Source: an uncultured Verrucomicrobiota bacterium (GTDB taxonomy: Bacteria; Verrucomicrobiota; Verrucomicrobiia; Opitutales; Intestinicryptomonadaceae). From it: a DNA stretch of 64,000 bases. Below the pieces are notes generated by a model that saw only the letters and a program-made list of their open reading frames with translations, had not been told where the DNA came from and did not search any database. Of the stretch, positions 39,404 to 63,606 are shown piece after piece. Made by a program: the position numbers and the translations under genes. Location: the NCBI GenBank assembly GCA_949293415.1, contig CASFDK010000022.1:2686-66685 (forward strand). Reading direction: 5' to 3'. Each line of letters starts with the position of its first letter. Position 1 is the stretch's first letter.

Positions 39404-41786
<2,383 letters not shown>

Positions 41787-46321: not shown

Positions 46322-47153
46322 AATTTCGGAAATCCCGACACGCGCAAATTCCCTGCCGAACGCGGTCGCTTCCGCCGACCCGTGGGCGGCGTTGCAGAAG
46401 TTCACGGCGGCGCGGATAGGTATCGGGCGTACGGGGGGCAGCCAGCGCACGCCGTCGATACTCGACTTCCGACTCGCCCACGCGCGGGCTCGCGATGCCG
46501 TGCACGCGCCGTTTTCGCCCGAAGAAATCGCCGAAAAGCTCGGCGCGTGCGGACTCGAAAGCTCGGTTTTGCACACGCTCGCATCCGACAAGCGCACCTA
46601 TCTGATGAACCCCGACGCGGGGCGCAGGCTTTGCGAAGACTCGCGCAGGAAACTTTCGGGGCTTGCCGCAAAATGGGGGTACCGCGATTTCGCAATCGTG
46701 ATTTCCGACGGGCTTTCGGCAACCGCCGCAAACGCGCACGCCGTGCCGCTTGCCGTTGCGCTTTTTGAAAATCTGCCGCGCGAAAACTGGAGCGCCTACC
46801 CGATATTCGTGGTGCCGTATGCTCGCGTCAAAATTCAGGACGACATCAACGAAATTCTGCACGCGCGGCACACGATAATCCTCGTGGGCGAACGCCCGGG
46901 GCTGGCTTCGCCGGACAGCCTTAGCGCGTATTTTACATACCGCGCAAAGTGGGCGAGCGTTGAATCCGACAGGAATTGCGTTTCGAACATTCGCCCGAAC
47001 GGTTTCCCCGTTGCTGCGGCGGCGAAAAAGCTTGCGATGCTTTTGGAGGAGTCGCGCAAACGTTCGATAAGCGGAACGCGGCTTAAGGATAATATTCCGG
47101 TGTCCGAAATCGGGTCTGCCGCGGTTCTTCCCGATTCGGCGGCTTCCGACTGA
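46302..47153 (+). CDS. eutC: ethanolamine ammonia-lyase small subunit
   Basis: Blocks TAARIGIGRTGGS and LDFRLAHARARDAVH are typical of EutC. 20-nt overlap with eutB. Confidence 0.9.
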   Translation: MNRQSTEISEIPTRANSLPNAVASADPWAALQKFTAARIGIGRTGGSQRTPSILDFRLAHARARDAVHAPFSPEEIAEKLGACGLESSVLHTLASDKRTYLMNPDAGRRLCEDSRRKLSGLAAKWGYRDFAIVISDGLSATAANAHAVPLAVALFENLPRENWSAYPIFVVPYARVKIQDDINEILHARHTIILVGERPGLASPDSLSAYFTYRAKWASVESDRNCVSNIRPNGFPVAAAAKKLAMLLEESRKRSISGTRLKDNIPVSEIGSAAVLPDSAASD

Positions 47154-47324
47154 TTTCGGCGGCGGTTTCGCAAATGTTTCAAAAAAATGGTTGAAAGAAT
47201 GCGGCGCGTTTGTAATCTCTCCCCATTGTAAAACGCCGATAGCGCAGTTTCGGGGAGTTCGTTTTCCGCGTTCCCGCCGAGTCCGCGCGGCGCGATTTTT
47301 ATCAATCAAAAAAAGGATTATACT

Positions 47325-48512
47325 ATGTCGAAAAGACCTCTCAATGTGGGACTCATCGGCGGCGGTTGCGGCGCGTTCATCGCCCAGCCCCACCAAAAGG
47401 CAATTTTCTCGGACGGCACGCGCAGGGTTGTCGCTGCGGCTCTCCATCCGAATCCCGAAGTGGCGATGAAGGAGGCCGAAAACTGGCCGTACCCCATCAA
47501 GGGCTATCCGTCGTACGTCGAAATGATTGAAGACCAGAAGAATCTTCCCGAAGACCAGCGTCTCGACTACGTTCTCATTGTTACCCCCAATTTCGTGCAC
47601 TTCGACCCCGCAATGAAGGCAATCGAAGCGGGCATTCCGGTGATGTGCGAAAAGCCCCTTACAATCAATCTCGAACAGGCGGACGCGCTCGTTGCCGCAG
47701 CCACGGCAAAGGGTCTGCCGTTTGCGGTCGCCCACACGTACCTCGGGCACTGGTCGTCGTGGTTCTCGCGCTTCGTTGTAACGAGCGGTCTGCTCGGCGA
47801 CGTGCGTTGGGTCGATTCGTCGTACATTCAGGGCTGGCTTGCCAAGAAGATTGAACAACAGGGCGGCGAAGGCGGCGCGGACTGGCGTACCGACCCCAAG
47901 CGTTCGGGCGGCTCGCTCTGTTGCGGCGACATCGGCACGCACGCGCTTATGCAGTTGCGCTTCGTAACGGGTCTCGACGTAACCCGCGTTTCGGCGCACT
48001 TCGAAACTTTCGTAAAGAGCCGTCTGCTCGACGACCACGCAACCGTCTATTGCGAACTTTCCAACGGCGGCAAGGGTATGGTCAGAGCCTCGCAGGTTTG
48101 CATCGGTCATAAGAACGATATGGCAATCGAAGTTGCGGGAACAAAGGGTACGCTCGTGTGGCGTCAGGAAGAACCCGAAAAGGTCGTCATTATGCTTGCG
48201 GGGCAGCCCGACCGCGTATATTGGCGCGGCGACGTACAGCCCAACGACGGCTTCCTCGGCGACGTTCCCGAATGGCTTCTCAAAGAACCGCGCATTCCGT
48301 CGGGTCACCCCGAAGGCTTCCACGACGCGTACGCGCGCCTGCACCGCGAGTTCGAAAAGGACATCCGCGCGTGGAAGGAAGGCAAGCCCTTCTCGTACGA
48401 ACACACACGCTACGCAACCGTTCTCGACGGCAGAATGGGCTTGGCTTTTGTCGATGCCTCCATCAAGAGCAACGCAAAAGAGGGCGCGTGGGAACCCGTC
48501 AAACTCGGCTGA
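47325..48512 (+). CDS. Gfo/Idh/MocA-family oxidoreductase
   Basis: N-terminal VGLIGGGCGAFIAQPH Rossmann motif, MCEKPL motif, ~395 aa. Confidence 0.85.
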   Translation: MSKRPLNVGLIGGGCGAFIAQPHQKAIFSDGTRRVVAAALHPNPEVAMKEAENWPYPIKGYPSYVEMIEDQKNLPEDQRLDYVLIVTPNFVHFDPAMKAIEAGIPVMCEKPLTINLEQADALVAAATAKGLPFAVAHTYLGHWSSWFSRFVVTSGLLGDVRWVDSSYIQGWLAKKIEQQGGEGGADWRTDPKRSGGSLCCGDIGTHALMQLRFVTGLDVTRVSAHFETFVKSRLLDDHATVYCELSNGGKGMVRASQVCIGHKNDMAIEVAGTKGTLVWRQEEPEKVVIMLAGQPDRVYWRGDVQPNDGFLGDVPEWLLKEPRIPSGHPEGFHDAYARLHREFEKDIRAWKEGKPFSYEHTRYATVLDGRMGLAFVDASIKSNAKEGAWEPVKLG

Positions 48513-48575
48513 TAGTCTGCGGATTTTTGTCGCGGTTTCGCCGCCGTCCTGTCGCGGCGAAACGCACGGCGGAAA

Positions 48576-48609
48576 CGTCCCGAATCGCAAAGGTTCGGGG
48601 CGTTTTTTT
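48576..48609 (+). terminator. intrinsic terminator
   Basis: Stem CGTCCCGAA / TTCGGGGCG with a 9-nt loop, followed by T7. A second hairpin (GTTTCGCCG / CGGCGAAAC) precedes it. Confidence 0.7.
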
Positions 48610-48768
48610 ATGTAGCTTTTTCGTGTGCTACGAAGTTGGGAAATTCCGCTTTTCGGGAACGGAAGGGGAACGTTCGGATTTGAACGGAAGTCGATTTCGA
48701 CATCCCGAATCGGGCGGCGGCTCGGCAATGTTGCCGGATCTTATCGGCAACTGCTTCCGTCTTTGATG

Positions 48769-49425: not shown

Positions 49426-49779
49426 ATGCAAAACCTAACAAAGCGAGAAATCGTACAGAGAATTTATCAGGAAAAAGAAGAATGCCGCCGCGGCGACATC
49501 CTCCAGAACGATGTAAAAGACATCGTGCAGCGCACGCTCGACATCTTGTCGGAGTCGCTCGCGCAGGGCAAGAATGTGGAACTTAGAAACTTCGGCGTTC
49601 TCGAAGTTCAGGTTCGCAAGCCGCGTGTCGGCAGAAACCCCACAAAGCCCGACCACGATGTAGTTATTCCGAAACGCGCAATCGTCAAGTTCAAGGCTGG
49701 TAAGGAACTGAAAATCGCACTCAAGAAGCTCGACCTTTCGCTCGTAGAGGAAAGCAAGGCGGCTCGCGCAAGAAAATAA
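49426..49779 (+). CDS. HU/IHF-family DNA-binding protein
   Basis: RNFGVLEVQVRKPRVGRNPTKPD...VKFKAGKELK matches the HU/IHF arm and signature. Confidence 0.85.
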   Translation: MQNLTKREIVQRIYQEKEECRRGDILQNDVKDIVQRTLDILSESLAQGKNVELRNFGVLEVQVRKPRVGRNPTKPDHDVVIPKRAIVKFKAGKELKIALKKLDLSLVEESKAARARK

Positions 49780-49794
49780 CAACCGTTTCGGGCT

Positions 49795-51090
49795 ATGTTC
49801 AGAACGCTGCCGGGATTTAGGGAGTTTTATCCCGAAGATTGCGCCAAAAAGAACTATATTTTCGGCGTATGGCGTACTGCGGCGCGGTCGTTCGGCTTTT
49901 CCGAATTCGAGCCGCCCGTTCTCGAACAGCTCGATTTGTTTACCGAAAAAAGCGGCGAGGAAATAAAATCGCAGCTTTTCGAATTTGTCGACAAGGGCGG
50001 ACGCGCCGTTTCGCTCCGCCCCGAAATGACGCCGTCGCTCGCCCGAATGGTCGGCGCGAAGGCGGCGGGCATCAGACGCCCCGTCAAGTGGTTTGCCATA
50101 GGCGAAAACTACCGCTACGAGCGTCAGCAAAAGGGCAGGCTTCGCGCGTTCTTCCAGTACAACGCCGACATTCTCGGCGAGGAGTCGCTCAACGCCGACG
50201 CGGAGGTTGTCGCGCTTCTGATTGAATCGCTGCGCGGCTTCGGTCTGACCGAAAACGAATTCAAACTCCGTTTGGGCGACAGAACTTTGTGGGTTCTGTT
50301 TCTCGAAAACGCGGGCGTTCCCGAAGAAAAAATCATTCCCGTTTTGTCGGTCGTCGACAAGCTCGAGAAGGTTTCGCCCGAGGTACTCCGCGAAATGACC
50401 GCGGAAGCCCTCAAGGGGACGGATTTAGACGCGGACATTCTCGTCGGAAAAATCAGGGCGTTCATCGCCGTGCGCGACATCGACGCAATGCGCTCGTATT
50501 TTGACGCGCAGGGCGAACTCGCCGTACGCGTGGACGCGCGCATAGCCCAGTGGCGCGAACTTCTGAAAATTCTCGAAAGCCTCGGCGTGGGCGCGTTCAT
50601 TTCGCCCGATTTGAGCATTGTGCGCGGATTGGCGTACTACACGGGTTTCGTGTTCGAGGCGTTCCAGATTGTCGGCACGGGCAGGGCTCTCGCGGGCGGC
50701 GGACGATACGACAATCTCGTCAAGAAGCTCGGCTATCAGGATATGCCCGCTGTCGGTTTCGGTATGGGAGACGTAACCGTTTCGGATTTGCTCGAACTGG
50801 TGGGCAAGTCGAAATCGCTTTCCGACCGCCCCGATGTCTATTTTGTGATAGGTTCGGAAAATGTGCGCTCAAAGGCAATGAGGATTGCAACGGCGTTGCG
50901 CCGTTCGGGAGTAAAGGTGGACTATCCGTTGAAGGCTTTGTCGTTCGGCAAGCAGTTCAAGCAGGCGGATGCCGTGGGCGCGTCGAAGGCGTATATCTTG
51001 GGCGACGACGAACTTGCCGCGGGTGTCGTGAAAATCAAAGACCTCAAAACGGGCGAAGAGAGTTCGTCGAAAATCGACGAATTGATTTGA
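49795..51090 (+). CDS. hisS: histidine--tRNA ligase
   Basis: LRPEMTPSLARMV, RYERQQKGRLRAFFQ and GGGRYDNL blocks. C-terminal anticodon-binding domain. Confidence 0.95.
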   Translation: MFRTLPGFREFYPEDCAKKNYIFGVWRTAARSFGFSEFEPPVLEQLDLFTEKSGEEIKSQLFEFVDKGGRAVSLRPEMTPSLARMVGAKAAGIRRPVKWFAIGENYRYERQQKGRLRAFFQYNADILGEESLNADAEVVALLIESLRGFGLTENEFKLRLGDRTLWVLFLENAGVPEEKIIPVLSVVDKLEKVSPEVLREMTAEALKGTDLDADILVGKIRAFIAVRDIDAMRSYFDAQGELAVRVDARIAQWRELLKILESLGVGAFISPDLSIVRGLAYYTGFVFEAFQIVGTGRALAGGGRYDNLVKKLGYQDMPAVGFGMGDVTVSDLLELVGKSKSLSDRPDVYFVIGSENVRSKAMRIATALRRSGVKVDYPLKALSFGKQFKQADAVGASKAYILGDDELAAGVVKIKDLKTGEESSSKIDELI

Positions 51091-51110
51091 TATAATATGA
51101 TTCTTTCATA

Positions 51111-51139
51111 ACCGCCGCAATCTGCGGCGGTTTTTTTTT
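51111..51139 (+). terminator. intrinsic terminator of hisS
   Basis: Stem CCGCCGC / GCGGCGG with a 5-nt loop, followed by T9. Confidence 0.8.
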
Positions 51140-51152
51140 GGTGCTATTTTGC

Positions 51153-51179
51153 TTGACTTTTTTGTGTGGATGTTATAAA
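51153..51179 (+). promoter_or_regulatory. candidate sigma-70 promoter (extended -10)
   Basis: TTGACT (51153-51158), a 15-nt spacer containing TGt, then TATAAA (51174-51179). It sits directly upstream of paralog A. Confidence 0.4.
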
Positions 51180-51211
51180 TAGTGCGCCGAAAAAAGAAAG
51201 ATGGCACTGAA

Positions 51212-53209
51212 ATGATTGGTTATACAAGATTTTGCCGTATTATCGCGCTTTGTTCGGCGTGTGCCACCGCGGCGTTTTTGCCCGCCTGCGATTTTGTCAA
51301 AGAGAAAAAAACTCAGATAGAAAAGAAATACGTTTATTCTCCCGAGGAACTGAAAATTCGGGAGGCGGCGAAGAAATATTTTCCGTCCGACGAATCGCTT
51401 CAGGATGCTTGGATTTCGAAACAGCTCGAGGCATATTCGGTGCTCTCGAATTTCGTTCCCGACGTGCCCGTAGAGACGTTTGCGAGAATCCGCGAACGCG
51501 CCGACGCAAAGTTTCCGACGGACTATTCCGAGCGTCTGCGCTATCTGTCGGACCAATGCGAGGGGTTTTTGCGTTCCGATATGCTTTGCAAAACGTTCGC
51601 GCCCGCCGACTGTCGATATGTGCAGTCCCAAGCGGCGGAACGCTATCCCGACGATTTCGCGGCGCGGGTTGATTATGTAGAAAAATGGCGTACGGTTTTC
51701 TTGGAAATCGCCCGCAAACTGTCCTATTTCCCCAAGGACGAAAGCCCCGAAATAAGGAGGGCGGCGATTGACGCTTGCGGCGGCGATCCGCAGGCGGCGA
51801 TGGATTTCATCGATACCCAATATGCGGCGTTTCGCGATTTTGAAACGTTCGCGTGGCGCGCGGCGCGTACGGTGCGCGACCGTTCCGAGCGAATAAAGGA
51901 CGAAGTCCGGAAGGGCACGCCCGTAGACTACATCGTGCGGCGCGACGCCGTCGCCGCTTACCTTTCGGGGAATTCGTCTAAGTCGGGCGAATCGCAGTCG
52001 GAAAGGTTTGCCGCCGATTCCAAAACGAAAGCGGAGGAGATTTTCTCGAAATCGGTATTTACAAAACGCGGAGCGGAAAACGAAATATACGCGGCGGTGC
52101 TCGTAAAAATGCGCGGCAAGAGCGTGATATTGTGCACGAAAGAGTTCGTTCCCGAAAGATTTCCCGTGGTGTTCGCAAACAGCCGCGGGAAAATCGTCTG
52201 TTCGCGGGCGTACGTTTCGGACGAGCTTCCGATAGTACTGCTGGTACCCGACGATGAGCCGAAAGATTTCACCCCGATTGAAGTTGCAGACGCCTCCGAT
52301 TGCGCAAACCTTGTCAACCGTAAACTGTTCATGATAGCACCGCGCGGCGGCGGCTACGGCACGTTCGGCGTGTCCGTTCTTTCCGAGGACGAAAAATACC
52401 TCAATATGACGATGGCGACCGCGCCGACGGTTTCGTATTCGTCCAAAGTGCGTCCATTGGGGCGCAGCGGCGACAAGTTTCTTGTCAGCGTTTCGGAAGT
52501 GTCGGGTGTCGGCGAAAATTCCGTGGTGATTGACCCGAAATCGGGCAAATTGGTTTCGCTTGCGGTGAGGGTCTACAATCCGGGGGTGCTTTCGCACCAC
52601 GGAAAAACGGGTTCGATTATCGGGCACGAAAAAATGGCGATTCCCGATTTTACCACGTTCGTGCGCCAGTTCGACGGCACGGTAAACAAGACCTTCATCC
52701 CGTTCAGTTCGATAAGATTCGTCCGTCTTACCGCGTTCGATTCGTGGAAGCCGCTCGACCCCCAGCGTTACCAACGCCAGAAAAACGAAATCCGAAAAAT
52801 TACGGATATGAACAACGATTTTCTGATGTTTTTCAAAAACAACCGTTTCGACGAAGCCCTGCGCTCGCGCCGATTGGGGCGAATAGCCGAACGCTACCAG
52901 AAACCGTTTCTGCACGACAGGCTCTCGCGCGATTCCTACGAGCGCAAGTACAGGGAGTATATGCTCGATATCGTATACGCGCTCAAGGCGGAGCTTCAGC
53001 AGCCCGTTTATCCCGAGCAGTTTTATTCGATATACAGGCAGGAACTGATTTTCCAGCTCAAGCTCAGGCGGGCTATGTACGACTACATCGCCGAAAGCTC
53101 GAGCGACCCAAACATAATCAACGTTCTCCACACCGACCTCCAGACGCGCTACAACAACTGCGGCGTGAATACCGAGCGCATCGGAGGTTCGATTGGCGGG
53201 GGATATTGA
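51212..53209 (+). CDS. uncharacterised lipoprotein, paralog A of a tandem triplet
   Basis: Start moved to ATG 51212 because the track's GTG start lies directly after the -10 box. Lipobox FLPAC. Helical repeats (KYFPSDESLQDAWISKQ, AKFPTDYSERLRYLSDQ, ERYPDDFAARVDYVEKW). Gly-rich C-terminus GGSIGGGY. Confidence 0.7.
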   Translation: MIGYTRFCRIIALCSACATAAFLPACDFVKEKKTQIEKKYVYSPEELKIREAAKKYFPSDESLQDAWISKQLEAYSVLSNFVPDVPVETFARIRERADAKFPTDYSERLRYLSDQCEGFLRSDMLCKTFAPADCRYVQSQAAERYPDDFAARVDYVEKWRTVFLEIARKLSYFPKDESPEIRRAAIDACGGDPQAAMDFIDTQYAAFRDFETFAWRAARTVRDRSERIKDEVRKGTPVDYIVRRDAVAAYLSGNSSKSGESQSERFAADSKTKAEEIFSKSVFTKRGAENEIYAAVLVKMRGKSVILCTKEFVPERFPVVFANSRGKIVCSRAYVSDELPIVLLVPDDEPKDFTPIEVADASDCANLVNRKLFMIAPRGGGYGTFGVSVLSEDEKYLNMTMATAPTVSYSSKVRPLGRSGDKFLVSVSEVSGVGENSVVIDPKSGKLVSLAVRVYNPGVLSHHGKTGSIIGHEKMAIPDFTTFVRQFDGTVNKTFIPFSSIRFVRLTAFDSWKPLDPQRYQRQKNEIRKITDMNNDFLMFFKNNRFDEALRSRRLGRIAERYQKPFLHDRLSRDSYERKYREYMLDIVYALKAELQQPVYPEQFYSIYRQELIFQLKLRRAMYDYIAESSSDPNIINVLHTDLQTRYNNCGVNTERIGGSIGGGY

Positions 53210-53222
53210 CGGACATTTCGAT

Positions 53223-55178
53223 ATGAAAAGCATAACCATATTACTCATACTTCTCGCCGCAGTCGGCGGGTGGTACTACTATGACAAATACGGAATGCCC
53301 GTATCAAATACCCCGACCGAAGATGTGGCGGACGCGCGCGTGCTCGCGCTTTCCGTCCGCGCCGAAAAACTTTTCCCGACGAAAGAGGACGAGCGCAAGG
53401 CGTGGCTCGCCCGCCAGATTTCCGCAATGCAGGCGATAGACCGAAAGGCGGAGGGGCTCGACGCGGCGGTATTTTCGTCGATAGTCAAAACCGCGCGCGA
53501 CAGATACGGAACAGACTATGTAAAACAGCTCGATTTCGTCTCCGGACAGCGCGTTGCGGCACTCGACGTTGCGAATATGCTTGCAAATTCGGGCTTTTCT
53601 GCGGACGAAAAGGCGGCTCTCGAAAAACGCACGAAAGAGGCGTTCGGAAACGACTATGTTTTGCGCCGCGCAGTCTATTCGAACATCTTCGAGGCGTACG
53701 CGAATATGAAGAAAAAATCGGTGCTGCTTTCGCCCGAAGACTACAAAAAACTTTCCGAAAAACTTATGCCTACACTGCTCCGCAACCCGCAGCAGGCTCT
53801 CGAAATTTTCGAACGACAGGCGTTGGCGAGGCACAATTTCAAGACCAAGAGCATTCCGGAATCGTACGGCGATTTGCGCAAAGACATAGAGGAAAAATTT
53901 CCCGACGACTACGTTGCGCAGCTCGCCGAGCTCGACAGCCGCCTCGATTCCGCAATGCGCAGGGGGCGCGCACTCGGCTGGGGCACGGCTGGGCGCAATG
54001 TGATTACGCCGATTGCAAGGGAATACTTTGCGAAATACCTGTACGTCCACGACGCGAACGGCGTTCTGACGCTTTCGTTCGTCGCGAAAATCCGCGGCAA
54101 AAAGGTCGTGGCGTTTCCGACCTGCGCGCTCGATTCCGCCCCGAAGTCCTATTCGGTCGATTTGGGCGGCGGGAAGAAAATCTCGTCGAACAAAATCTAT
54201 CTGTCGAAAAACGCCGACTTCGGGATAATCCTGCCCGACGGAATCGACGACGTTTCGGAAGTCGAAACTGAGCAGGCGCCGAAGGGAAAAATAGCCGTCG
54301 AAATAGTCGGGGTTGACTTGTCGGGTTCGCAAATTTCGTTCTCGGCCTTCCTCGAAAACGGAAAGTTTCTCGAGTTCGAGCCGCACGTGAAAAAGGCTCT
54401 CGGCGAAAAACTGCGTAGCGGCGCGATAATCGTCGATTCCGAATCGAAAAAGGCGGTCGGACTGCTCGAATTCGAGCCCGACGGCGGGGCGTCCTATTAC
54501 GCCGACTTCGAAAACCCGACCGTGGAAATAGCGTTCGCCCAAAAGAAGAGGGTTTCGCGCTGGCACGGTCTGGGTGAGGCTCTTTCCTTCGGCGGAAAAA
54601 TCTGCATTCCGTCGGGGACGAAAAACTGCAGGGTTGTGCCGTTTTCGGAGCTCGAAACCGTCGTCCGTTACGACGCGGCGAAATTTTCGAAGCAGAAAGA
54701 CAACATCCGAAAACTGTGCCGCTCCAATTTCAGCGCGCTTGCGTTTATGCTCGGCGGATGTTTCGGCGAGGATATGAAAACCGAAATCGTTTCCGCCGTC
54801 GCCGAAAAATACAACCCGACATTCGTCAACGGCTCGCGCATGAACGTGGCGATGCTTCATATGCGCTTCAATTCGTATATGCGCGATGTCAGGCAGGCTC
54901 TCGTGCAGAATGTCCATTTTGCCCGAAGCGACTTTTATTCGGAGTATTATTTCCCGTTCCGCGAAACGGCGAAAAAACAGTCGCAACTGTTCGCCAAACT
55001 TTGCGGCGCGATAAACGGCGGCATTTCGTCGCAGGACAAAATGGCTGTTTTGCACGCCGACTTGGCGGAGTCGCTCAACGGCAATACATACGTGCCCCCA
55101 GGCCGCAATTTCAAGCGCGGCGGTTTCGGCTCGGAAGGCGGCGGCGGTTCTGTTCTGAAAATGGAAAACAGGGATTGA
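53223..55178 (+). CDS. uncharacterised membrane-anchored protein, paralog B
   Basis: Start at ATG 53223, 13 nt after A. TM anchor ILLILLAAVGGWYYY. Repeats KLFPTKEDERKAWLARQ, DRYGTDYVKQLDFVSGQ and EKFPDDYVAQLAEL. Gly-rich tail GGFGSEGGGGS. Confidence 0.7.
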   Translation: MKSITILLILLAAVGGWYYYDKYGMPVSNTPTEDVADARVLALSVRAEKLFPTKEDERKAWLARQISAMQAIDRKAEGLDAAVFSSIVKTARDRYGTDYVKQLDFVSGQRVAALDVANMLANSGFSADEKAALEKRTKEAFGNDYVLRRAVYSNIFEAYANMKKKSVLLSPEDYKKLSEKLMPTLLRNPQQALEIFERQALARHNFKTKSIPESYGDLRKDIEEKFPDDYVAQLAELDSRLDSAMRRGRALGWGTAGRNVITPIAREYFAKYLYVHDANGVLTLSFVAKIRGKKVVAFPTCALDSAPKSYSVDLGGGKKISSNKIYLSKNADFGIILPDGIDDVSEVETEQAPKGKIAVEIVGVDLSGSQISFSAFLENGKFLEFEPHVKKALGEKLRSGAIIVDSESKKAVGLLEFEPDGGASYYADFENPTVEIAFAQKKRVSRWHGLGEALSFGGKICIPSGTKNCRVVPFSELETVVRYDAAKFSKQKDNIRKLCRSNFSALAFMLGGCFGEDMKTEIVSAVAEKYNPTFVNGSRMNVAMLHMRFNSYMRDVRQALVQNVHFARSDFYSEYYFPFRETAKKQSQLFAKLCGAINGGISSQDKMAVLHADLAESLNGNTYVPPGRNFKRGGFGSEGGGGSVLKMENRD

Positions 55179-55182
55179 TATT

Positions 55183-57060
55183 ATGCGCAAGTTCACACTC
55201 GGTTTGTTGGCGGCTGCTCTCGCGGCGGTCGGGGGATATTATTATTACCGCGAAAACGTCGCCGCGCCCGTTGCCGACAACCCGCAGGACGCGCCGTATT
55301 TCGCGAAGGCTGCGGAGCTGTTTCCGAACGACGTAAAAGCCCAGCGCAAATGGATTGCTCAGGCGCGTTCGTACGCCGAAAAAATCGCCGCCCTTCCCGC
55401 CCCGAAATCGAAGTCCGATTCCGCGAAAATCCTCGCGCAGTCGGAGGAACTGTACCGTTTCGACTTCGACAGGAAACTCGAGTACGTCAAGGGACAGTTC
55501 GACGCGCTCAGGCGCATCGAGGCGTACGGAAACGACGAAAACATTCTGCCGTCCGAATACACGCTGATTCTCGAGGTTTCGGCGAAGGCTTCACCCGAAA
55601 ACTACAAGGCGCGCTACACCGCCGCGCTTTTGTACCATTCGATGTTCTCCGCAATCCGCCGCGCCGAGGAGGATTGCGACAGGACGGTCTTCAAAGTCAT
55701 TTACAACCGCTTCGTCGAAACATTCCGAACCGACCCAAAGGCCGCTTTCGACAGATTCGAGCGCGAGTACGCCGCGCTGAAATCGTTCAACGAGCAGAGT
55801 CTGCCTCCCGAAATCGACGGCGCGCGCGAGTATATCGCTTCGCAGACTTCCGACATCCTCGGGCGTTTCGACGCGCTTTCGCGCCTCTATGCCGACCCCG
55901 CGCGGAACGTCGACAAAGTCCTTTTGTCAACGCGCCGCCCCGACTGGAAAAATTTCGGAAAAATCAAGGACGTCCACAGGCGGATTGCGGAAAATTCCGT
56001 CTATACCGCCGAATCGCGCGGCACGCGATATAGTGCGCTTTACATAACTTCGGGCGGTAAAAACTATTTCGCGGTTCCATCGGAGTGCTTCCCCGAAAAT
56101 TCCGATACGCTGTTTTTCGAGCGCAACGGTAAACGCGTTCCCGCAACGGTTGCGCGGATAGGCGAACGCTTTCTGTTCTATCGCCCGAGCGGGGCGGTGG
56201 AGGGTTCGCCAGTGCGCATAACGCGCCTGAACCATACGCCGTCGTCCGTTTCGGCTTTCGGCTCGAACGCCTACGGGAAAATCGTTTCGCTCTACTGTTC
56301 GCTAAGCGGCGTTTCGAACGGCGTGCTCGAGTTCTACGACAGCGGCAGGGAATCGTTTTTGGCTACGGAATCTTTCGCGACTTCCGAGGACGGCGGCGAA
56401 GTCTACGCGATGGGGTTGCGGAGTTCGGCTGCGGTCAAAAACGCGTCGGCGGACGAAGACAGATTCGCCGAAATCAAAAAGGCGAAGCGGCCCTTCCCGA
56501 CGCTCGCAAAACAGTTTCGCCCGAATTTTTCCGCAAGGCAGACTGTTCAGGGCGGAATAATTTTCCGCCAACTCGGCTACGAATTTTCAAGATCGACGGT
56601 GTTCGACAGGGATAGTGACGACAAACTAAAACAACAGCTCTCCGACCTCGAAAGGAAAAATGCGGCGGTGTTTGCCGCGCTGCTCGAAAACTCGGTTTCG
56701 TCGCTTCTTTCCGAGCGCGTCCGCACGGATTTTCCGTCGCTCTACGCCGTGGGAAAGAACAGCGAACGCTTCTTCTTCGGAGGACGGAAAACGGACGCAA
56801 AGCGGTTCGTAGCGGGACTTCGATATTACTATTCGCTAATCCAAAAGGAACTCGAGCGCGAGCTTTACGAGGTTCGTAAAAAAACGCCGTCGCCGTTCCA
56901 TGCGGAAAAATTTGCGGCGGAAGTGGGCTTTTCCGAAAAACTGGTCGAGGCGTTAAAGGGAATTTCGGCGGAACGCGGCGATTTGACCGGGTTCATCCCG
57001 TCGGACGTGCTTTCGGGATGGAACGGCGTGTACTTCGTTGCGCCCGTCCGGGAAAAGTAG
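55183..57060 (+). CDS. uncharacterised membrane-anchored protein, paralog C
   Basis: Starts 4 nt after B. TM anchor LLAAALAAVGGYYYY. Repeats ELFPNDVKAQRKWIAQA and ELYRFDFDRKLEYVKGQ. Collinear with A and B. Confidence 0.7.
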   Translation: MRKFTLGLLAAALAAVGGYYYYRENVAAPVADNPQDAPYFAKAAELFPNDVKAQRKWIAQARSYAEKIAALPAPKSKSDSAKILAQSEELYRFDFDRKLEYVKGQFDALRRIEAYGNDENILPSEYTLILEVSAKASPENYKARYTAALLYHSMFSAIRRAEEDCDRTVFKVIYNRFVETFRTDPKAAFDRFEREYAALKSFNEQSLPPEIDGAREYIASQTSDILGRFDALSRLYADPARNVDKVLLSTRRPDWKNFGKIKDVHRRIAENSVYTAESRGTRYSALYITSGGKNYFAVPSECFPENSDTLFFERNGKRVPATVARIGERFLFYRPSGAVEGSPVRITRLNHTPSSVSAFGSNAYGKIVSLYCSLSGVSNGVLEFYDSGRESFLATESFATSEDGGEVYAMGLRSSAAVKNASADEDRFAEIKKAKRPFPTLAKQFRPNFSARQTVQGGIIFRQLGYEFSRSTVFDRDSDDKLKQQLSDLERKNAAVFAALLENSVSSLLSERVRTDFPSLYAVGKNSERFFFGGRKTDAKRFVAGLRYYYSLIQKELERELYEVRKKTPSPFHAEKFAAEVGFSEKLVEALKGISAERGDLTGFIPSDVLSGWNGVYFVAPVREK

Positions 57061-57108
57061 CCCTTCGGCGGTGCGTTGTCGGCGGGGACGTTGCGAAGCC
57101 GTGTTGTC

Positions 57109-57137
57109 TTGACAAGGCGGCGGTGTTCCAATATCAA
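57109..57137 (+). promoter_or_regulatory. candidate sigma-70 promoter
   Basis: TTGACA (57109-57114), a 17-nt spacer, then TATCAA (57132-57137). 38 nt upstream of the ATG at 57176. Confidence 0.45.
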
Positions 57138-57175
57138 GTCCGTTCTTAACTCTTTAATTCGGGGATATTGGCTTT

Positions 57176-58159
57176 ATGAAATTCTTTACGACTCTTTTTG
57201 CGTTGTCGGCATCGTGCTGCGCGCTCGCGCAATCCTATATGGTTACCGTTGAAACTATTGTCGGCAACCGTTCCGAAGACAAGTTCTGTTTTTCGCTCGA
57301 AAAGGACGTGAAACAGACAAAGGGATTCGACGGAAAACTGCTCGCCAAACGCTACAGGGCAAAGGGTTTTCCGCATAGAGGGTTGGCGGCGAAGGCGGCG
57401 CAGAAAGCCGAGGAGAAAAAGCTCGAAGAGTTTGCCGAATTGAGACCCGCGGAGATTGTGAAAAAATATCTCGAACAGGCGCGGAAAGAACTCGAATCGG
57501 CGCAGAAAGGCGAATCGGCGGCGGTCGGCAGGCGCGAATCGCTCGAGGATAAGGTGAAGACGCTCGAAAATCTCGACGAGCTTGCCTCGCGCGGCGCGGC
57601 GACGTTCGATGCCGAATACAACGAGTTCCGCAAACGCTACGGGCTTACCGACGAGGACTTGAACTACAAAAAGCTTCTCCAGAAACGTCCGCGCTACACG
57701 GGCGACATCGAGGAAATCGACTACGGCTCGTATTGCTCGATGGAAATCGTCAAAGCCACCGAGAAAAAAGTCTACATCGATATGAACTACGCCTACTCGA
57801 GAATCAACGGCAGTTTCTATTCCGACGGCAACAACAACTCGAACTCCATAACGAAACATCCGATAGTGGAACGTTTCGAAAAATTAGGCGTTAAGGATTT
57901 GAAAATTTCAATAGGCAAACCCTATTGCTTCCAGTTCGGCAGGCTTTCGCCCGAAAAGGCGCGGTCGCTGTCCGAGGCTCTTTCGAAGTCGGGCATATTC
58001 GGCGGGGGCGAAGGCGGGGAAACGGTGCAGGAATCGGCGCAACCGCAGGAAAGTTCGGAGCTCGACGCGCAGGGCTCGTACGCGGAAATCAAACGCAACT
58101 TCGCTTCCGACGGCGGACGCGTGGTGCGCGTTGTCATCACCGTAAAGCCCGAGAAATAG
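57176..58159 (+). CDS. secreted coiled-coil protein, uncharacterised
   Basis: Signal peptide MKFFTTLFALSASCCALA. Charged heptad-like central region (AQKAEEKKLEEFAELRPAEIVKKYLEQARKELESAQK). Gly/acidic segment GIFGGGEGGETVQESAQPQESSE. Confidence 0.65.
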   Translation: MKFFTTLFALSASCCALAQSYMVTVETIVGNRSEDKFCFSLEKDVKQTKGFDGKLLAKRYRAKGFPHRGLAAKAAQKAEEKKLEEFAELRPAEIVKKYLEQARKELESAQKGESAAVGRRESLEDKVKTLENLDELASRGAATFDAEYNEFRKRYGLTDEDLNYKKLLQKRPRYTGDIEEIDYGSYCSMEIVKATEKKVYIDMNYAYSRINGSFYSDGNNNSNSITKHPIVERFEKLGVKDLKISIGKPYCFQFGRLSPEKARSLSEALSKSGIFGGGEGGETVQESAQPQESSELDAQGSYAEIKRNFASDGGRVVRVVITVKPEK

Positions 58160-58274: not shown

Positions 58275-59687
58275 CTAGAAATTCAAGCCGTATTGCAGCC
58301 CGAGAACGAAAGCGTCGCCGTACTGACCGCCGTTTGTGTTGAAAATGTACTGCGCGTTCGGCTGGATGAACGAGAACTTGTTTATCTGCACTTTGTAGTT
58401 CAGTTCGAACGCTATTTCATACGAATCACGCCTGTGGTCGGTGTACTTGTCCGAGAATTTTCCGTAGGCAACGCCGAAGCAGAGCACGTCGTCGGCGCGG
58501 GATTTGAACGGCGCGTTGAACAACAGCCCGCCGTTTGCGAAAATCGGCATATCGGCGAGGTTCTCGAAGGGGTCGTACTGGAACGCGCCCCAGAGCACGA
58601 TTCCGCGCAGGTCGCGCCATTTGTCTTCGTCGCGCACAATGTAGTAGGGTTCGTCCCTCTTGACCTGTCCGAGGTTGAAAATCATATAGTCCGCCTGCAC
58701 GTATATCGAGCAGTTGAAGTGCGAATATTCGGCTGGGTTGTCGATGTGCGGCGCGTTGTACCACGAGGCGATTATCCCCGCCGAGACGTTCGCGGGCGAT
58801 TTGCCGCTTGCGTCGTGGTTGAAATTTCTGCCGAGCTCGAAGTTTGCGTTCACTCCGTCGCCGTTGAACGCCCAGTCGAGCCCGTGCATATTGTCCTGCT
58901 TTTCGGTATTGATTTTGTAGACACCCGCCTTGGCGTAGCCCGCATCCTTGTGTTCGAGTTGCACATACGCAGCCCAAGTGCTTCCCGGGTACGCCGAAAG
59001 TCGGGTCTGCTTGAACGCTCCCACGGGATTGCCGTCGAATGCGTTGTTTTGGTAGAGCCAGTAAATCGGCTTCGACATAAAGTTGTCGCCCGCGGCGAAG
59101 CGTCCGATTTTAAAAGTCAGCACAATGTCGGAGTGTAGGTTTTTGTCGAACGCCAAATAAAGCGACTGCAGTTGAAGTGTCTGCGAACCGTAGTTTTGTT
59201 GCACGTTGAAGGCGTTGCCTATCCGCGTTTTCGTTATGCTGTTGCCGAAACGCCAGCCCCACGCGTTGCCGATACTCCAGCCTTCGAGCGCGTCTATGTC
59301 CGTAAGCTCCTTTAGGTTCACGCCGAGCCCGAGATTTACCGAACTTGAGTTGTCGGCCCCGCGCGACATTCCGCCGCAGGTGTTCGCCGCAAAGTTGCCC
59401 ACATACGCAACCGACGGAACGATTCCGCCGCGTTCCGCATAACGTCTCAACCCGTAGACGTTGGCAGTCGCGTGCGGCGCATTGAACCATTCGTCTAAAG
59501 TTAAATGATGGTATTTTTTGTCTTTTATTATGCTGTCGTAATATTTGGGCACCATCTCTATCGGCGCGCCCGTGTCCTTGTCGAAAAGCGGAAGAGCGAA
59601 ATATTCCTTCGGCGCAGCTTGCAGGTTGTTCAATGCAAACACTGCGGCAGCCGCTGCAGCGGCTTTCGATAATATTCCGATTTTCAT
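58275..59687 (-). CDS. carbohydrate-selective porin, OprB-family-like
   Basis: Signal peptide ending LQA. The block GGMSRGADNSSSVNLGLGVNLKELTDIDALEGWSIGN resembles the OprB family. Beta-barrel terminus LQYGLNF. Confidence 0.65.
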   Translation of the reverse strand: MKIGILSKAAAAAAAVFALNNLQAAPKEYFALPLFDKDTGAPIEMVPKYYDSIIKDKKYHHLTLDEWFNAPHATANVYGLRRYAERGGIVPSVAYVGNFAANTCGGMSRGADNSSSVNLGLGVNLKELTDIDALEGWSIGNAWGWRFGNSITKTRIGNAFNVQQNYGSQTLQLQSLYLAFDKNLHSDIVLTFKIGRFAAGDNFMSKPIYWLYQNNAFDGNPVGAFKQTRLSAYPGSTWAAYVQLEHKDAGYAKAGVYKINTEKQDNMHGLDWAFNGDGVNANFELGRNFNHDASGKSPANVSAGIIASWYNAPHIDNPAEYSHFNCSIYVQADYMIFNLGQVKRDEPYYIVRDEDKWRDLRGIVLWGAFQYDPFENLADMPIFANGGLLFNAPFKSRADDVLCFGVAYGKFSDKYTDHRRDSYEIAFELNYKVQINKFSFIQPNAQYIFNTNGGQYGDAFVLGLQYGLNF

Positions 59688-59752: not shown

Positions 59753-60613
59753 TTAGTCGTCGGCGCGTGCGTCCGCGCGGCTTTGCGCGCTCTTTATTTC
59801 CGCTATCGTGATTGCGGGCGTGCACATAAAGCGCACGGGAATACGGCTTGTTCCGAGTCCGCGCGTAGTGTATACGATATTGTCGCCGCTTCGGAAAAAT
59901 CCCTCGATGGGAATTTTTTTCGCAAGGACTTTCTCCGCCACGTTTCCGAAAAACGGCAGGCGGATTTGTCCGCCGTGCGTATGCCCCGAAAACATTGCCG
60001 CGCACCCTTTCGGCATTTCCGCAAACACGTCGGGGATGTGCGATAAAAATATGACATCGGCGTTTTCGGGAATGTTTTCGAATGTCGGAATCATAAAATA
60101 GTTGCGCGTCTGCGCGTCGGCAATTCCGGCAAGGTAGAACGCGCCGCGACCGGTTTCGACTTTTGCGCTCGAATTTTCGAGCAGGGGAATCTTCGCGTCG
60201 GCGAGCATCTTTCTTATCGGCGTCGTTCCGTAGTAGGTGTCGTGGTTGCCGAGCACGGCGTAGACTCCGAGCGGTGCGGAGAACTTGGCGAAGCTCTTTG
60301 CGAGCCTGTCCATTCCCATTTTCGATTCGCATACGGAGCCGTTCGTGTAGTCGCCGAGCAGGAGAATCAAGTCGGGCTTGGCGGCGTTCGTTTTTTTCAC
60401 GATTCTTTCGACGCGCCAAATTTCGGCGGGATTCGCCCCCGCGTGGATGTCGGAGACGAGCACAACCTTCAGACCGTCCAAGTTTTTGCTCCAATTCGGC
60501 GATTCGATTTCGGCGGAGTCGTAGTCGAGAAAAATGTACGGTTCTACGACAAGCCCCCAAATCCAGAGGGATATTATGGGCAGTATTGCCGACAACTTGA
60601 AAAACGGTTTCAT
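59753..60613 (-). CDS. metallophosphoesterase
   Basis: Calcineurin-like motifs VSDIHAG, LLGDY, LGNHD and SGHTHGGQ. N-terminal TM/signal segment. Confidence 0.85.
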   Translation of the reverse strand: MKPFFKLSAILPIISLWIWGLVVEPYIFLDYDSAEIESPNWSKNLDGLKVVLVSDIHAGANPAEIWRVERIVKKTNAAKPDLILLLGDYTNGSVCESKMGMDRLAKSFAKFSAPLGVYAVLGNHDTYYGTTPIRKMLADAKIPLLENSSAKVETGRGAFYLAGIADAQTRNYFMIPTFENIPENADVIFLSHIPDVFAEMPKGCAAMFSGHTHGGQIRLPFFGNVAEKVLAKKIPIEGFFRSGDNIVYTTRGLGTSRIPVRFMCTPAITIAEIKSAQSRADARADD

Positions 60614-60778: not shown

Positions 60779-60869
60779 GGAGAGGTGGCGGAGTGGCCGA
60801 TCGCGCTGGTTTGCTAAACCGGTGTAGGGATTTAAACCCCTACCGTGAGTTCGAATCTCATCCTCTCCG
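60779..60869 (+). tRNA. tRNA-Ser (anticodon GCU)
   Basis: Hand-folded. 7-bp acceptor GGAGAGG/CCTCTCC, 3-bp D stem, anticodon stem CTGGT/ACCGG with loop TTGCTAA, long variable arm (GTAGGG...CCCTAC), T arm GTGAG-TTCGAAT-CTCAT, discriminator G. CCA not encoded. Confidence 0.95.
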
Positions 60870-60915: not shown

Positions 60916-61293
60916 GAGCCTATCCGCCGCGCAAAGGTTCGCTGTTTTTTCGAAAAAGTTAAAGCCGCACGGGTATTCTATCGATAGGCATACGGGGATA
61001 TTGTTTTCAGACGAAGCGAAAGCCGACCCCGCCTACGGTAGGGGCGTGGCAAAGGCGATGGGGTTGGAATAAAATCCGATACCGAATTATTTCGCGCCGA
61101 ACATTCGGACAACCTGTCTTCTTGCCGTTTCTTTGGAAAGGCGGAAACGCGTGGGGGGGTAAATATCTGTACGGCGAAAAATTTGCCGATTGCAATGTCG
61201 CATCGTGAGTGCGCCTGTTTTTTCCGAGGCGTGCTTCCGTTCTTTCGGGTAAATTTACTTGAAAATGGTTTTTTGCTAACTTACTCATTGGCT

Positions 61294-63606
61294 ATGGCAA
61301 GAAAGATATATGTATTTGTGATGTACCTTGTCTGTGGCGTGTTGCTTTCGGCGCGGGAAGGAGGAAAAAAAGACTTTGTAAAATACGTTATGCCCGAGGC
61401 GGGCAGCGATTCGACGGCAGAATTGTCGACGGGCAATTTGTATCCCTGCGTGGCTGTTCCTTTCGGTATGAATTTCTGGTCACCGCAATCAAGGGAACAT
61501 TCGAAGCTCTGGTGGTACGCATATTCCGATACGAAGTTCAACGCAATCAGGCTGACGCACCAGGCAACCCCGTGGATAGGCGACTACGGCGTACTGTGCT
61601 TTATGCCGACCGTAGGCGAAAAAAAGGGGTTGGAAAAAGACAGGCAAAGTTGGATTTCGCACAAGGCGGAAACTATAAGTCCCGACTACTACAGCGTGTA
61701 TTTGGCGGACTATGACACTACATTGGAGCTTGCCCCAACCTCAAGGGGTGCGCATATGCGCGTTTCCTATCCCGATTCGGACAAAGCCAACTTTGTCATA
61801 GACGTTCTTTCCGGGAAATCATTCGCGAAAATAATTCCCGAAAGGAATATGGTGGTGGGCAAAAGCGTCTGGATAAATTCGCGCCGCGGTTATGTCGCGG
61901 GCGATCTTGCAAAATATTTCGTGCTTAAATTCGACAGACCTTTAAGCTCCTATGCAGTATTCGACGGCGAAAACATATGCGAAGGCGAAACGCAAACAAA
62001 AGATTCCTCTGCGCAAAAGGGCGTAATTTTGACCTTCAAGACAAAAAAGGGCGAAAGTGTCGGCATTCGGATTGCAACTTCGTTCATAAGCCTGCAACAG
62101 GCGGAGCTTAATTTCGAGAGGGAAGTCGCAAAAAATTCCTTCGACGAATGCAGGGCTAAGGGTAGGGCGCAATGGAACGGGCACCTTTCAAAAATACGGA
62201 TATGCGACGACAACATAGACGACTATCCGAACGTAAAAATGTTCTACACGGCCTTCTTCAGAACATTGTTGTTCCCCCGCGATTTCCACGAGATGGACGG
62301 GGACGGCAACAAAATACACTACAGCCCGTTTAACGGAAAAATAGAGCGCGGGGCGATGACGACCGACAACGGTTATTGGGACACTTTCAGAGCAGTCCAT
62401 CCCCTGTTCAATTTGCTTTTCCCCGAGCGGAGCGAAACGGTTTTGGAGGGTATGCAAAACACGTTCAAAGAGGGCGGATGGTTCCCCGAATGGGCGTCTC
62501 CGGGGTATGTGAATTGTATGATAGGCTCAAACTCGTCGTCGGTTGCGGCGGGCGCGTATTTGTTCGTGTCGAAAAGCGCGGCGGACGGCGAAATTTTGTG
62601 GCGGGCGATGAACAAGGGTGCCGAATCTTTCTGCGAAAAAAACAATTCGCTGGGAAGGGCTGGCGCAAGGCAATACAATACTTTGGGCTATGTGCCGAAC
62701 GACATCAACCTAAAGGAGAGCGCGGCGCGTACGCTCGAATACGCATACGCCGACTATTGCATTATGAAGTTCGCCAAGGCTTTGGGCAAGGACGATGCCG
62801 TTGTGGAAAAGTTTGCAAAGCGCGCCCAAAACTACCGCAATTTGTTCGACGAAAAACATTCGCTTATGGTGGGGCGCGATTCGAAGGGCGAATTTAAAAG
62901 GAATTTCAATCCCGTGGAGTGGGGCGGCGACTTTACCGAAGGCAATTCGATTCAATACACGTGGAGCGTTTTTCACGACATAAACGGTCTGGCGAAGCTT
63001 ATGGGCGGCAGGGAAAAGGCCGCAAAGCGGCTCGACGATATGTTCGCGATGGCTCCCGTTTTCGATGTGGGAGTCTACAAGACCGTGATACACGAAATCA
63101 GGGAAATGCAGATTGTCAATTTCGGTCAATATGCGCACGGCAACCAGCCCATACAGCACGGTGCGTATATATACGACTGGCTCGGGCAGCCATGGAAGAC
63201 TCAGTATTGGACAAGACGGATAATGCAAAAGCTGTACAAGCCCGAAATTGCCGCCTATTGTGGCGACGAAGACAACGGGCAGACTTCGGCTTGGTACGTG
63301 TTTTCGGCGTTGGGCTTTTACCCCGTATGCCCCGTGGACGGCGAATTCGCGATAGGTTCGCCCCTGTTCAAAAAGGTCGAGATTACGATGCCCGACGGCA
63401 AAAAGCTTTCGATTAAAGCGGAGAACAACTCCCCCGAAAACGTATACATCAAATCGCTGAAGATTGACGGCAAAGATTACGACAGGAATTACTTTACATT
63501 CGCGCAGCTCAGGAACGGCGGAGAAATCGTAATGGAAATGTCGGACAAGCCGAATACGACAAGGGGCGTTTCCGAGGAAAGCGCACCTAGCTCGATGACA
63601 AAATAG
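61294..63606 (+). CDS. glycoside hydrolase family 92 (alpha-mannosidase-like)
   Basis: Start at the internal ATG, giving a signal peptide (MARKIYVFVMYLVCGVLLSA). GH92-type blocks GNLYPCVAVPFGMNFWSPQ, YWDTFRAVHPL and CGDEDNGQTSAWYVFSALGFYPVCP. Confidence 0.85.
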   Translation: MARKIYVFVMYLVCGVLLSAREGGKKDFVKYVMPEAGSDSTAELSTGNLYPCVAVPFGMNFWSPQSREHSKLWWYAYSDTKFNAIRLTHQATPWIGDYGVLCFMPTVGEKKGLEKDRQSWISHKAETISPDYYSVYLADYDTTLELAPTSRGAHMRVSYPDSDKANFVIDVLSGKSFAKIIPERNMVVGKSVWINSRRGYVAGDLAKYFVLKFDRPLSSYAVFDGENICEGETQTKDSSAQKGVILTFKTKKGESVGIRIATSFISLQQAELNFEREVAKNSFDECRAKGRAQWNGHLSKIRICDDNIDDYPNVKMFYTAFFRTLLFPRDFHEMDGDGNKIHYSPFNGKIERGAMTTDNGYWDTFRAVHPLFNLLFPERSETVLEGMQNTFKEGGWFPEWASPGYVNCMIGSNSSSVAAGAYLFVSKSAADGEILWRAMNKGAESFCEKNNSLGRAGARQYNTLGYVPNDINLKESAARTLEYAYADYCIMKFAKALGKDDAVVEKFAKRAQNYRNLFDEKHSLMVGRDSKGEFKRNFNPVEWGGDFTEGNSIQYTWSVFHDINGLAKLMGGREKAAKRLDDMFAMAPVFDVGVYKTVIHEIREMQIVNFGQYAHGNQPIQHGAYIYDWLGQPWKTQYWTRRIMQKLYKPEIAAYCGDEDNGQTSAWYVFSALGFYPVCPVDGEFAIGSPLFKKVEITMPDGKKLSIKAENNSPENVYIKSLKIDGKDYDRNYFTFAQLRNGGEIVMEMSDKPNTTRGVSEESAPSSMTK

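Follow-up and report, generated by a model that had tools for sequence, protein, structure and literature searches.

What kind of system is encoded by four co-directional genes that fill a 7-kb block downstream of hisS in an uncultured gut bacterium of the Opitutales (Verrucomicrobiota; contig CASFDK010000022.1)? The question arose from a sequence-only reading of the 64,000-nucleotide (nt) stretch analysed here (the window; all positions are positions within it), in which three diverged, membrane-anchored paralogs and a secreted coiled-coil protein had been described. The four genes, called A to D, are as follows.

51212-53209, + strand: gene A, 665 amino acids (aa) from ATG, lipoprotein-type paralog
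53223-55178, + strand: gene B, 651 aa, signal-anchor paralog with a GGWYYYDKY motif
55183-57060, + strand: gene C, 625 aa, signal-anchor paralog with a GGYYYY motif, the most diverged copy
57176-58159, + strand: gene D, 327 aa, secreted partner

The open reading frames (ORFs) agreed with the sequence-only reading in position, direction and length (625-665 aa for A to C), and the gaps of 13 nt between A and B and 4 nt between B and C were also as described; C and D are separated by 115 nt. An alternative GTG at 51182 would lengthen gene A by 10 residues. The reading that we favour, tentatively and at a little under an even chance, is that A, B and C are N-terminally tethered periplasmic proteins that would act as non-catalytic binders or scaffolds, that would carry a protease-derived barrel, and that would work together with D.

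Scans of A to D against Pfam-A, NCBIfam, PADLOC and PHROGs yielded nothing above noise, and PDB sequence searches with B and with a family profile gave no relative (a chance hemolysin match was obtained at 0.068), which agrees with the sequence-only reading that no described family applies. The sole match to a defence model was that of D to PADLOC SWIM_XIII (E = 0.0082, 12.8 bits), in which no single stretch passed the threshold, and Pfam scans of 67 family members returned scattered noise only. Literature searches found no account of the A-C family or of its repeat. A word-indexed search of 5.8 billion proteins returned five relatives of B, none informatively named, and the same five proteins were returned when the search was repeated with an 11-sequence alignment. 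An exhaustive HMMER search with a profile of A, B, C and their orthologs recovered 262 proteins at E ≤ 1e-3, 47 of them at E ≤ 1e-30. Judged by profile similarity, A to C are thus members of a larger family of at least 262 relatives that carries no annotation in curated libraries and that extends beyond this 7-kb block and this lineage.

Full-length family members fell into A-type lipoproteins, B-type and C-type signal-anchor proteins, a further transmembrane (TM)-anchored group, and a group of about 550 aa that bears cleavable signal peptides (...AQEMP...). Three kinds of N-terminal targeting were therefore represented across the family (lipobox, TM anchor and cleavable signal peptide), and since every group carries a targeting N-terminus, all appear to be exported. 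The family has so far been traced to genomes of Opitutales (Verrucomicrobiota) and to unlabelled metagenomic relatives only. The closest genomic match was the uncultured Opitutales metagenome-assembled genome (MAG) UMGS1069 from human gut (93% for B); other relatives came from Opitutales and Opitutia MAGs, from Candidatus Merdousia (Opitutales, Intestinicryptomonadaceae) and from Puniceicoccaceae bacterium Marseille-Q1082, a cultured relative whose locus (L013) has the simpler single-copy arrangement with D.

That A, B and C are collinear but diverged paralogs had been proposed from the letters, and was borne out by formal comparison. By BLASTP, A and B aligned over their full length at 20% identity (E = 5e-21), while B and C (E = 1e-9) and A and C (E = 2e-6) aligned in their N-terminal parts only (~170-300 residues). 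A profile built from 57 family members, with every C-type sequence left out, scored C at 140 bits and matched residues 1-317 (4.9e-38) and 470-609 (1.4e-4). Because both segments were matched, C is taken to be collinear with its paralogs except at residues ~318-469, which were too diverged to align to that profile. Sequence comparison thus identifies the three genes as true, anciently duplicated paralogs.

The N-terminal anchors were likewise found as described. Gene A contains a lipobox at 51278-51289 (...AAFLPA|C, Cys26) in which the Pro at position -2 is atypical; LSGC, LCGC, LASC, FTGC and similar motifs stand at this place in A-type orthologs and relatives. Under the pattern [LVI][ASTVI][GAS]C gene A was counted as carrying a lipobox, and its acylation is a prediction from the sequence. 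B and C have in common the motif AAVGG[WY]YYY, in which an N-terminal hydrophobic helix runs into GGWYYYDKY (B) or GGYYYY (C). The description of A to D as an envelope module stood as far as these anchors and the signal peptide of D are concerned; the envelope localisation itself we infer. A pattern scan for GGWY[YC]YD also drew a Thermoplasmatales archaeal contig (L017, 7906-7959) that matched over 18 residues at 72% identity (E = 5e-4, relative to the candidates only). The hit seems to be a coincidence of the hydrophobic-aromatic anchor motif rather than a sign of homology.

A structure was predicted for B with AlphaFold2 (AF2) from a seven-sequence alignment (predicted local distance difference test (pLDDT) 80.2, predicted template modelling score 0.55). 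The following parts were distinguished, and they include the beta-rich centre, the helical C-terminal part and the Gly-rich tail that had been read from the sequence.

53226-53288, + strand: N-terminal TM helix of B, residues 2-22 (AF2 helix; conserved hydrophobic segment plus GGWYYY)
53334-53954, + strand: helical-repeat array of B, residues 38-244, ~45-aa units with the motif [FY]P.D[YF]..Q
54039-54473, + strand: double beta-barrel of B, residues 273-417, pLDDT 77-93, predicted to be chymotrypsin/HtrA-like, no catalytic triad
54675-55070, + strand: C-terminal helical bundle of B, residues 485-616, with conserved W/D/K/Q/N/Y positions and including the QK..I.K block
55107-55175, + strand: Gly-rich tail of B, residues 629-651, pLDDT <50, disordered, conserved among B orthologs

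When the B model was compared with the PDB by using Foldseek, the top 50 matches were almost entirely chymotrypsin-fold (PA-clan) proteases of many families, including FAM111A, DegP, DegS (also as a delta-PDZ form), DegQ-like and HtrA proteases (the Deg/HtrA group being from E. coli, M. tuberculosis and H. pylori), MamO, Rv3671c, SplB and coronavirus 3CLpro. E-values ranged from about 8e-3 to 7e-2 (best 8.2e-3; DegP 3mh6 8.6e-3; MamO 5hm9 1.2e-2), probabilities were mostly 1.00, and template modelling scores (TM-scores) normalised to the DegS and MamO protease domains were mostly 0.45-0.55. The sole other recurring match was a designed helical repeat protein, on the N-terminal array. The model places 13 strands in residues 273-417, with extra strands up to residue 482, and strand count and order fit two six-stranded barrels. 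Local motifs also stand in the expected order (G-K-x-V...P, then S...P, then a GxS-like strand-turn-strand, xxVxGhh). Evidence that the central domain of B adopts a PA-clan double barrel is moderately good, short of proof, and depends on the model.

Several observations weigh against this assignment. It rests on a single AF2 model with a shallow alignment, no Foldseek match reached E ≤ 1e-3, and root-mean-square deviations (rmsd) for HtrA-type matches were mostly 5.5-13 Å. An hhalign comparison of the central domain with approximate sequences of the DegS, DegP and HTRA1 protease domains gave a non-significant probability of 0.2%, although the resulting alignment was topologically sensible. The Pfam profiles Trypsin and Trypsin_2 matched neither A, B or C nor any of the 67 family members at E ≤ 0.1; a PDB profile search with the family profile returned no protease; and no PDZ domain was matched by Pfam in A to C or in the 67 members, the C-terminal region of B being all-helical in the model. 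The likeness to proteases could therefore be an artefact of modelling and searching, and A to C a structurally novel envelope protein such as a periplasmic structural or spacing element. The lack of any sequence or profile link to a protease, the shallow alignment and the Foldseek E-values all speak for such an explanation, which we nevertheless regard as unlikely: the top matches converge on one fold class across many unrelated protease families, and an artefact would also have to account for the two six-stranded barrels and the order of the local motifs.

Residue conservation was determined from an alignment of the 67 family members. Within the central domain, His reaches at most 13 of the 67 sequences in any column, and the column with that count is an insertion. 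By manual mapping, Pro is dominant at B columns 299 and 332, close to the expected sites of His and Asp (the non-significant hhalign alignment puts His at column 301). The putative nucleophile column, located by its distance from the xxVxGhh strand that comes next, holds Ser in A, in C and in 28/67 members and Ala in B; close Merdousia-type orthologs have Ser, Thr or Ala there. Given the lack of a conserved His, the Pro near the His and Asp sites and the variable Ser column, the family as a whole has no canonical triad. Conservation is highest instead at W61, Q65 and A47, in the first helical repeat, and at N502, Y552 and D613, in the C-terminal bundle; D229 in the repeat array of B is also conserved across the family. 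The sequence-only reading had noted neither a catalytic Ser nor a catalytic His: this stood for His and, in B, for Ser, but not for Ser in A, C and the other members that keep it. Its speculative suggestion of a chymotrypsin-fold pseudo-protease gained support from the PA-clan matches together with the lack of a conserved His.

Some members retain Ser in a GxS-like context, which counts against a uniformly inactive family, and residual or non-canonical activity may persist in them. A to C would then be active hydrolases with a non-canonical catalytic arrangement (Ser with the conserved Lys293 or Asp405), serving as tethered processing proteases with D as substrate or regulator. Such an explanation would draw on the Ser column, on the EGS(P/T)L motif of the 550-aa group, which resembles GDSGGPL, and on the conserved polar residues K293 (K/R in 56/67), S328 (47/67) and D405 (43/67). 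Catalysis is disfavoured because the candidate nucleophile is dispensable among orthologs; with His not conserved anywhere in the domain and zero protease profile matches, we consider active hydrolases rather improbable. A catalytically dead protease fold is the best reading of the central domain of A to C, on the strength of the model.

Among known systems, the HtrA proteases (DegP, DegQ and DegS; MEROPS S1C, PA clan) resemble the proposed A-C proteins in facing the periplasm and in often being membrane-tethered (DegS by an N-terminal anchor), in the double barrel predicted for B and its top structural matches, and in joining a protease-type domain to a separate binding module. A to C differ in that they have no His-Asp-Ser triad, no Trypsin_2 profile match and no PDZ domain, in that helical repeats of ~45 aa are arrayed at the N-terminus and a helical bundle stands at the C-terminus, and in that similarity is undetectable even profile-to-profile. 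Coronavirus 3CLpro, an active Cys-His enzyme of viral origin, has the same order of modules (a double barrel and then a helical domain) and was aligned by Foldseek over about 370-390 columns, but at an rmsd of about 19 Å the likeness is an analogy of layout only, and 3CLpro has neither anchor nor repeats. The nearest conceptual precedent, by analogy, is MamO (PDB 5hm9/5hma), which has been described (PMC4794232) as a repurposed inactive HtrA-like protease of magnetotactic bacteria. MamO likewise has a membrane-associated trypsin-fold domain, an apparent loss of catalysis and a non-proteolytic role, and its protease domain was among the best matches to B (ranks 3 and 6; TM-score normalised to the target 0.45-0.51). 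It is encoded by a single gene in the magnetosome island and has a di-histidine transition-metal site and a TauE-like transporter domain (in part after PMC4794232), whereas the A-C family lacks a conserved His, occurs in another domain context and another taxon, and shows no detectable homology to it.

The ~45-aa repeats claimed for the N-terminal halves were compared with chance by using a repeat hidden Markov model (HMM; ~43-45 aa) built from six proteins unrelated to the locus (P0098, P0100, P0108, P0125, P0136 and P0137). A scored 45 bits and B 19.7 bits, against 5.4 for the best of 300 shuffled sequences, so that the claim stood for these two proteins; C was marginal at 6.9 bits. The units in A are residues 46-81, 86-117 and 137-152, and its helical repeats span about 51347-51667; the consensus is roughly IP..v...Ik..A...YP.DY.MQ.Y....Q..AY..L. 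The repeat also occurs as standalone secreted proteins of 150-250 aa (among P0098, P0100, P0108, P0113, P0125, P0136 and P0137) and fused C-terminally to a signal-peptide-bearing caspase (Peptidase_C14), to EAD11-CHAT and to KAP-family NTPases. No significant Pfam match was obtained for the repeats of A to C or for the standalone P0108, P0125, P0137 and P0099 (Pfam-A, 2025 copy), and no curated profile of known helical repeat families (TPR, Sel1 and similar) matched the N-terminal array of A to C. Judged by its sequence, it seems to be a binding repeat that has been recruited widely and is not yet described, and being absent from Pfam it may merit a family definition of its own.

For D, the AF2 model (pLDDT 73) and the sequence gave the following parts; the signal peptide, the coiled coil and the Gly/acidic segment announced by the sequence-only reading were all recovered, the coiled coil as long helices and the Gly/acidic segment as a disordered linker.

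57176-57229, + strand: signal peptide of D, cleavable, ALA|QS
57233-57346, + strand: N-terminal beta-hairpins of D (AF2)
57377-57685, + strand: long helices of D, ~100 residues (AF2)
57710-57940, + strand: long beta-strands of D, four antiparallel, residues 179-255, 16-21 residues each, with an invariant FYSDGNNN.N.ITK loop
57965-58051, + strand: Gly/acidic linker of D, disordered
58067-58150, + strand: small C-terminal beta/alpha element of D

The word-indexed search of 5.8 billion proteins returned 27 relatives of D, none informatively named; one homolog is named as from Coraliomargarita sp. CAG:312. Mean column identity over 21 homologs was 55%, with invariant KRY, GD.EE, FY.DGNNN.N.I.K and C.Q..R motifs. 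Leading PDB fold matches of the D model were secretins: BfpB (8.6e-3, probability 0.98), then GspD of the type II secretion system, PulD, ExeD, RcpA, PilQ and InvG. TM-scores were merely 0.08-0.21 at an rmsd of 13-19 Å, and the probability was ≥0.75 in the top three only and ≤0.5 in most others. Neither the Secretin profile (PF00263) nor secretin N-domains were found in Pfam scans of D and 20 homologs, which gave coiled-coil noise only; a PDB profile search with D returned coiled-coil proteins only; and the viral structure library BFVD gave no match to the D model, including none of the phage pIV type. D and the secretins (GspD, PilQ, BfpB) are alike in their long antiparallel beta-hairpins, but D has only 327 aa and a ~100-residue helical insertion. 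The resemblance is a lead only, drawn from the model.

Were that lead to be followed, the four genes could encode a new trans-envelope conduit, with D as a secretin-like barrel in or under the outer membrane and A, B and C as a periplasmic and inner-membrane platform. The best PDB matches of D, its 16-21-residue antiparallel strands with their conserved loop, and the difference in anchor type between A and B/C would suit such a machine. Its probability is nonetheless low in our judgement, in view of the weak TM-scores, large rmsd and mostly low probabilities, the silence of the Secretin and BFVD searches and the missing N-domains; moreover, none of the loci examined has an ATPase, a pilin or any other secretion gene linked to it.

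Whether D belongs with A, B and C was considered from the arrangement of the genes in related genomes (loci are given by their L numbers).

HU-hisS-A-B-C-D: six lineages, namely the window, L007, L006, L001/L002/L008, L010 and L018 (identity at L018: D 46%, B 30%, C 22%)
HU-hisS-A-B-C without D: L021
hisS-B-C only: L009
One B-like gene, a secreted protein of 160-190 aa, a D-like gene, rubredoxin and flavodiiron: L004/L005/L015, L011, L013, L014 and L016
One A-like gene, a D-like gene and rubredoxin: L024
D alone beside rubredoxin and a flavodiiron protein: L019 and L020
Distant family members as singletons: L022, L023, L025 and L026

A-B-C(-D) co-location is thus present in many related genomes, and the order and the 1:1:1 copy number of A, B and C are kept down to 22-40% identity (L018, L021). 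Comparison of the loci indicates that the triplication is old and that one copy of each type is strictly retained. Pairing of a family member with D recurs in three different arrangements and is not universal. The sequence-only reading had D as an adjacent fourth gene; this held in the window, and D was found to be more than that, a conserved partner that also accompanies single-copy members and sometimes stands alone.

These loci also supply arguments against joint action. D is not a constant neighbour (L021, L009 and L019/L020), the more distant family members are singletons with no extra paralogs or D-like genes beside them in L022, L023, L025 and L026, and the neighbours (hisS, HU, rubredoxin and the flavodiiron protein) offer no functional hint. 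A to C could accordingly be redundant, lineage-specific duplicates and D an unrelated neighbour, with no four-gene module at all; that D has a promoter-like site of its own and lacks a nearby family member in L019 and L020 would be in keeping with this. We judge it improbable, since the order and copy number of A-B-C persist at such low identity, the anchor types remain specific to their paralogs, a family member sits beside D in three independent arrangements although the gene content further downstream changes from lineage to lineage (it does so even within the full HU-hisS-A-B-C-D arrangement), and all four genes are under similar purifying selection.

The strength of that selection was estimated as the ratio of nonsynonymous to synonymous substitution rates (dN/dS) against orthologs at 93% and 77% identity (L007 and L006). 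Values were 0.11-0.12 for A, 0.09-0.16 for B, 0.14-0.15 for C and 0.08-0.09 for D, compared with 0.05-0.12 for hisS. Substitution patterns thus indicate that A, B, C and D are real genes, all under purifying selection. Very long ORFs were also found on the opposite strand, at 51173-53248 (-, 691 aa), 53304-55196 (-, 630 aa) and 46137-48728 (-, 863 aa); they lie opposite gene A, gene B and an upstream GFO/IDH/MocA oxidoreductase gene, respectively, and their translations are Arg-rich and non-coding in appearance. The 691-aa and 630-aa ORFs were ruled out as true genes, since homologs, purifying selection and confident models all speak for the + strand products. Stop codons seem to be depleted from one antisense frame of the genome, a bias that could lead gene callers astray.

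Upstream of A lie an HU-like gene (49426-49779) and then hisS (49795-51090). The signals around the genes are listed below; the hisS terminator and both promoter-like elements had been noted in the sequence-only reading and are present.

51110-51132 plus a T9 run to 51141, + strand: hisS intrinsic terminator, 10-bp stem (7 GC pairs), loop of 3, upstream boundary of the module
51153-51179, + strand: promoter-like site 5' of A, TTGACT at 51153-51158 and TG-n-TATAAA (extended -10) at 51171-51179, 15-nt spacer, read from the sequence
57109-57137, + strand: promoter-like site 5' of D, TTGACA-N17-TATCAA, read from the sequence

Neither promoter-like site was listed by a consensus promoter scan, terminator prediction placed none between C and D, and an Rfam gathering scan found no RNA element inside or near the module. 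GC content of the module (0.54-0.56) is the same as in the flanks. An origin as a mobile element or defence island was ruled out by this composition, by the retained housekeeping synteny and by the lack of integrase or defence matches.

In the single-copy lineage (Merdousia/Puniceicoccaceae-type), a secreted protein of 158-193 aa is encoded between the B-like and D-like genes (L004 11400-11981, L011 11974-12522, L013 11991-12476, L016 11969-12445). It has a conserved VK(I/V)GGKYY.ED..GNLI start, a low-complexity middle, no Pfam or PHROGs match and no counterpart in the window. D-like genes also lie directly 5' of rubredoxin, usually with a flavodiiron (Lactamase_B/ODP) gene next, even where no A/B/C-type gene is nearby (L004 13129-14466, L011 13832-14989, L019 9895-11224, L020 3913-5270, L024 10986-11156); this linkage was lost in the lineage of the window. 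Downstream of D in the window, an OprB-family carbohydrate porin gene (58275-59687, -) is convergent with D and is followed by a membrane-anchored metallophosphoesterase gene (59753-60613, -), both assigned via Pfam matches of their L006 orthologs, and by a gene for a large secreted protein (61183-63606, +) whose family is unconfirmed. A catalase gene that stands between the latter two in close relatives is absent from the window. A tRNA-Ser(GCT) at 60779-60869 was detected by both ARAGORN and Rfam. ARAGORN further reported a 96-nt tRNA-Arg(CCT) at 39427-39522 (+, anticodon at position 40) on which the Rfam tRNA model was silent at the gathering threshold; the tRNA may be spurious or of an unusual kind.

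Returning to the proposal of tethered, non-catalytic binders or scaffolds, the fold is predicted; that the proteins lie in the periplasm, have lost catalysis, form a complex and act as a scaffold is what we infer, and these points would fit together as follows. A would be tethered as a lipoprotein and B and C via a signal-anchor helix, all facing the periplasm. Each paralog would display its helical hairpin repeat array as a protein- or ligand-binding module, alongside a conserved helical bundle and a chymotrypsin/HtrA-like double barrel from which the His-Asp-Ser triad has been lost. The barrels would retain a protease-like binding cleft and, since they would not cleave, the role left to A to C would be to bind an envelope polypeptide or polymer, or to scaffold it, without catalysis. 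In this they would be joined by D, a secreted protein predicted to combine a long antiparallel beta-sheet with long helices.

HtrA-type domains normally function as trimers. Because of this analogy, and because paralogs with distinct anchors are strictly kept at 1:1:1, an A:B:C hetero-oligomer may have replaced an ancestral homo-oligomer. In its boldest form, which we hold to be a long shot, A to C would be obligate subunits of a hetero-trimeric dead HtrA-like assembly, attached to the inner membrane via B and C and possibly to the outer membrane via A, and with D would form an undescribed Opitutales trans-envelope machine that uses the widely recruited ~45-aa repeat.

The module represents well-supported, conserved dark matter with an interpretable fold, and addresses no long-standing question. 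To our knowledge, gut Opitutales are common in human and animal microbiomes and almost unstudied; here a 7-kb module stands in a conserved HU/hisS neighbourhood under selection as strong as that on hisS, yet is unannotated in curated libraries. If the fold assignment is true, it would join MamO as a second, independent example of an HtrA-type domain turned to a non-proteolytic function in the envelope. The domain would in this case have been expanded into three specialised paralogs with different anchors, which would make the family a clean system for the transition from homo- to hetero-oligomer.

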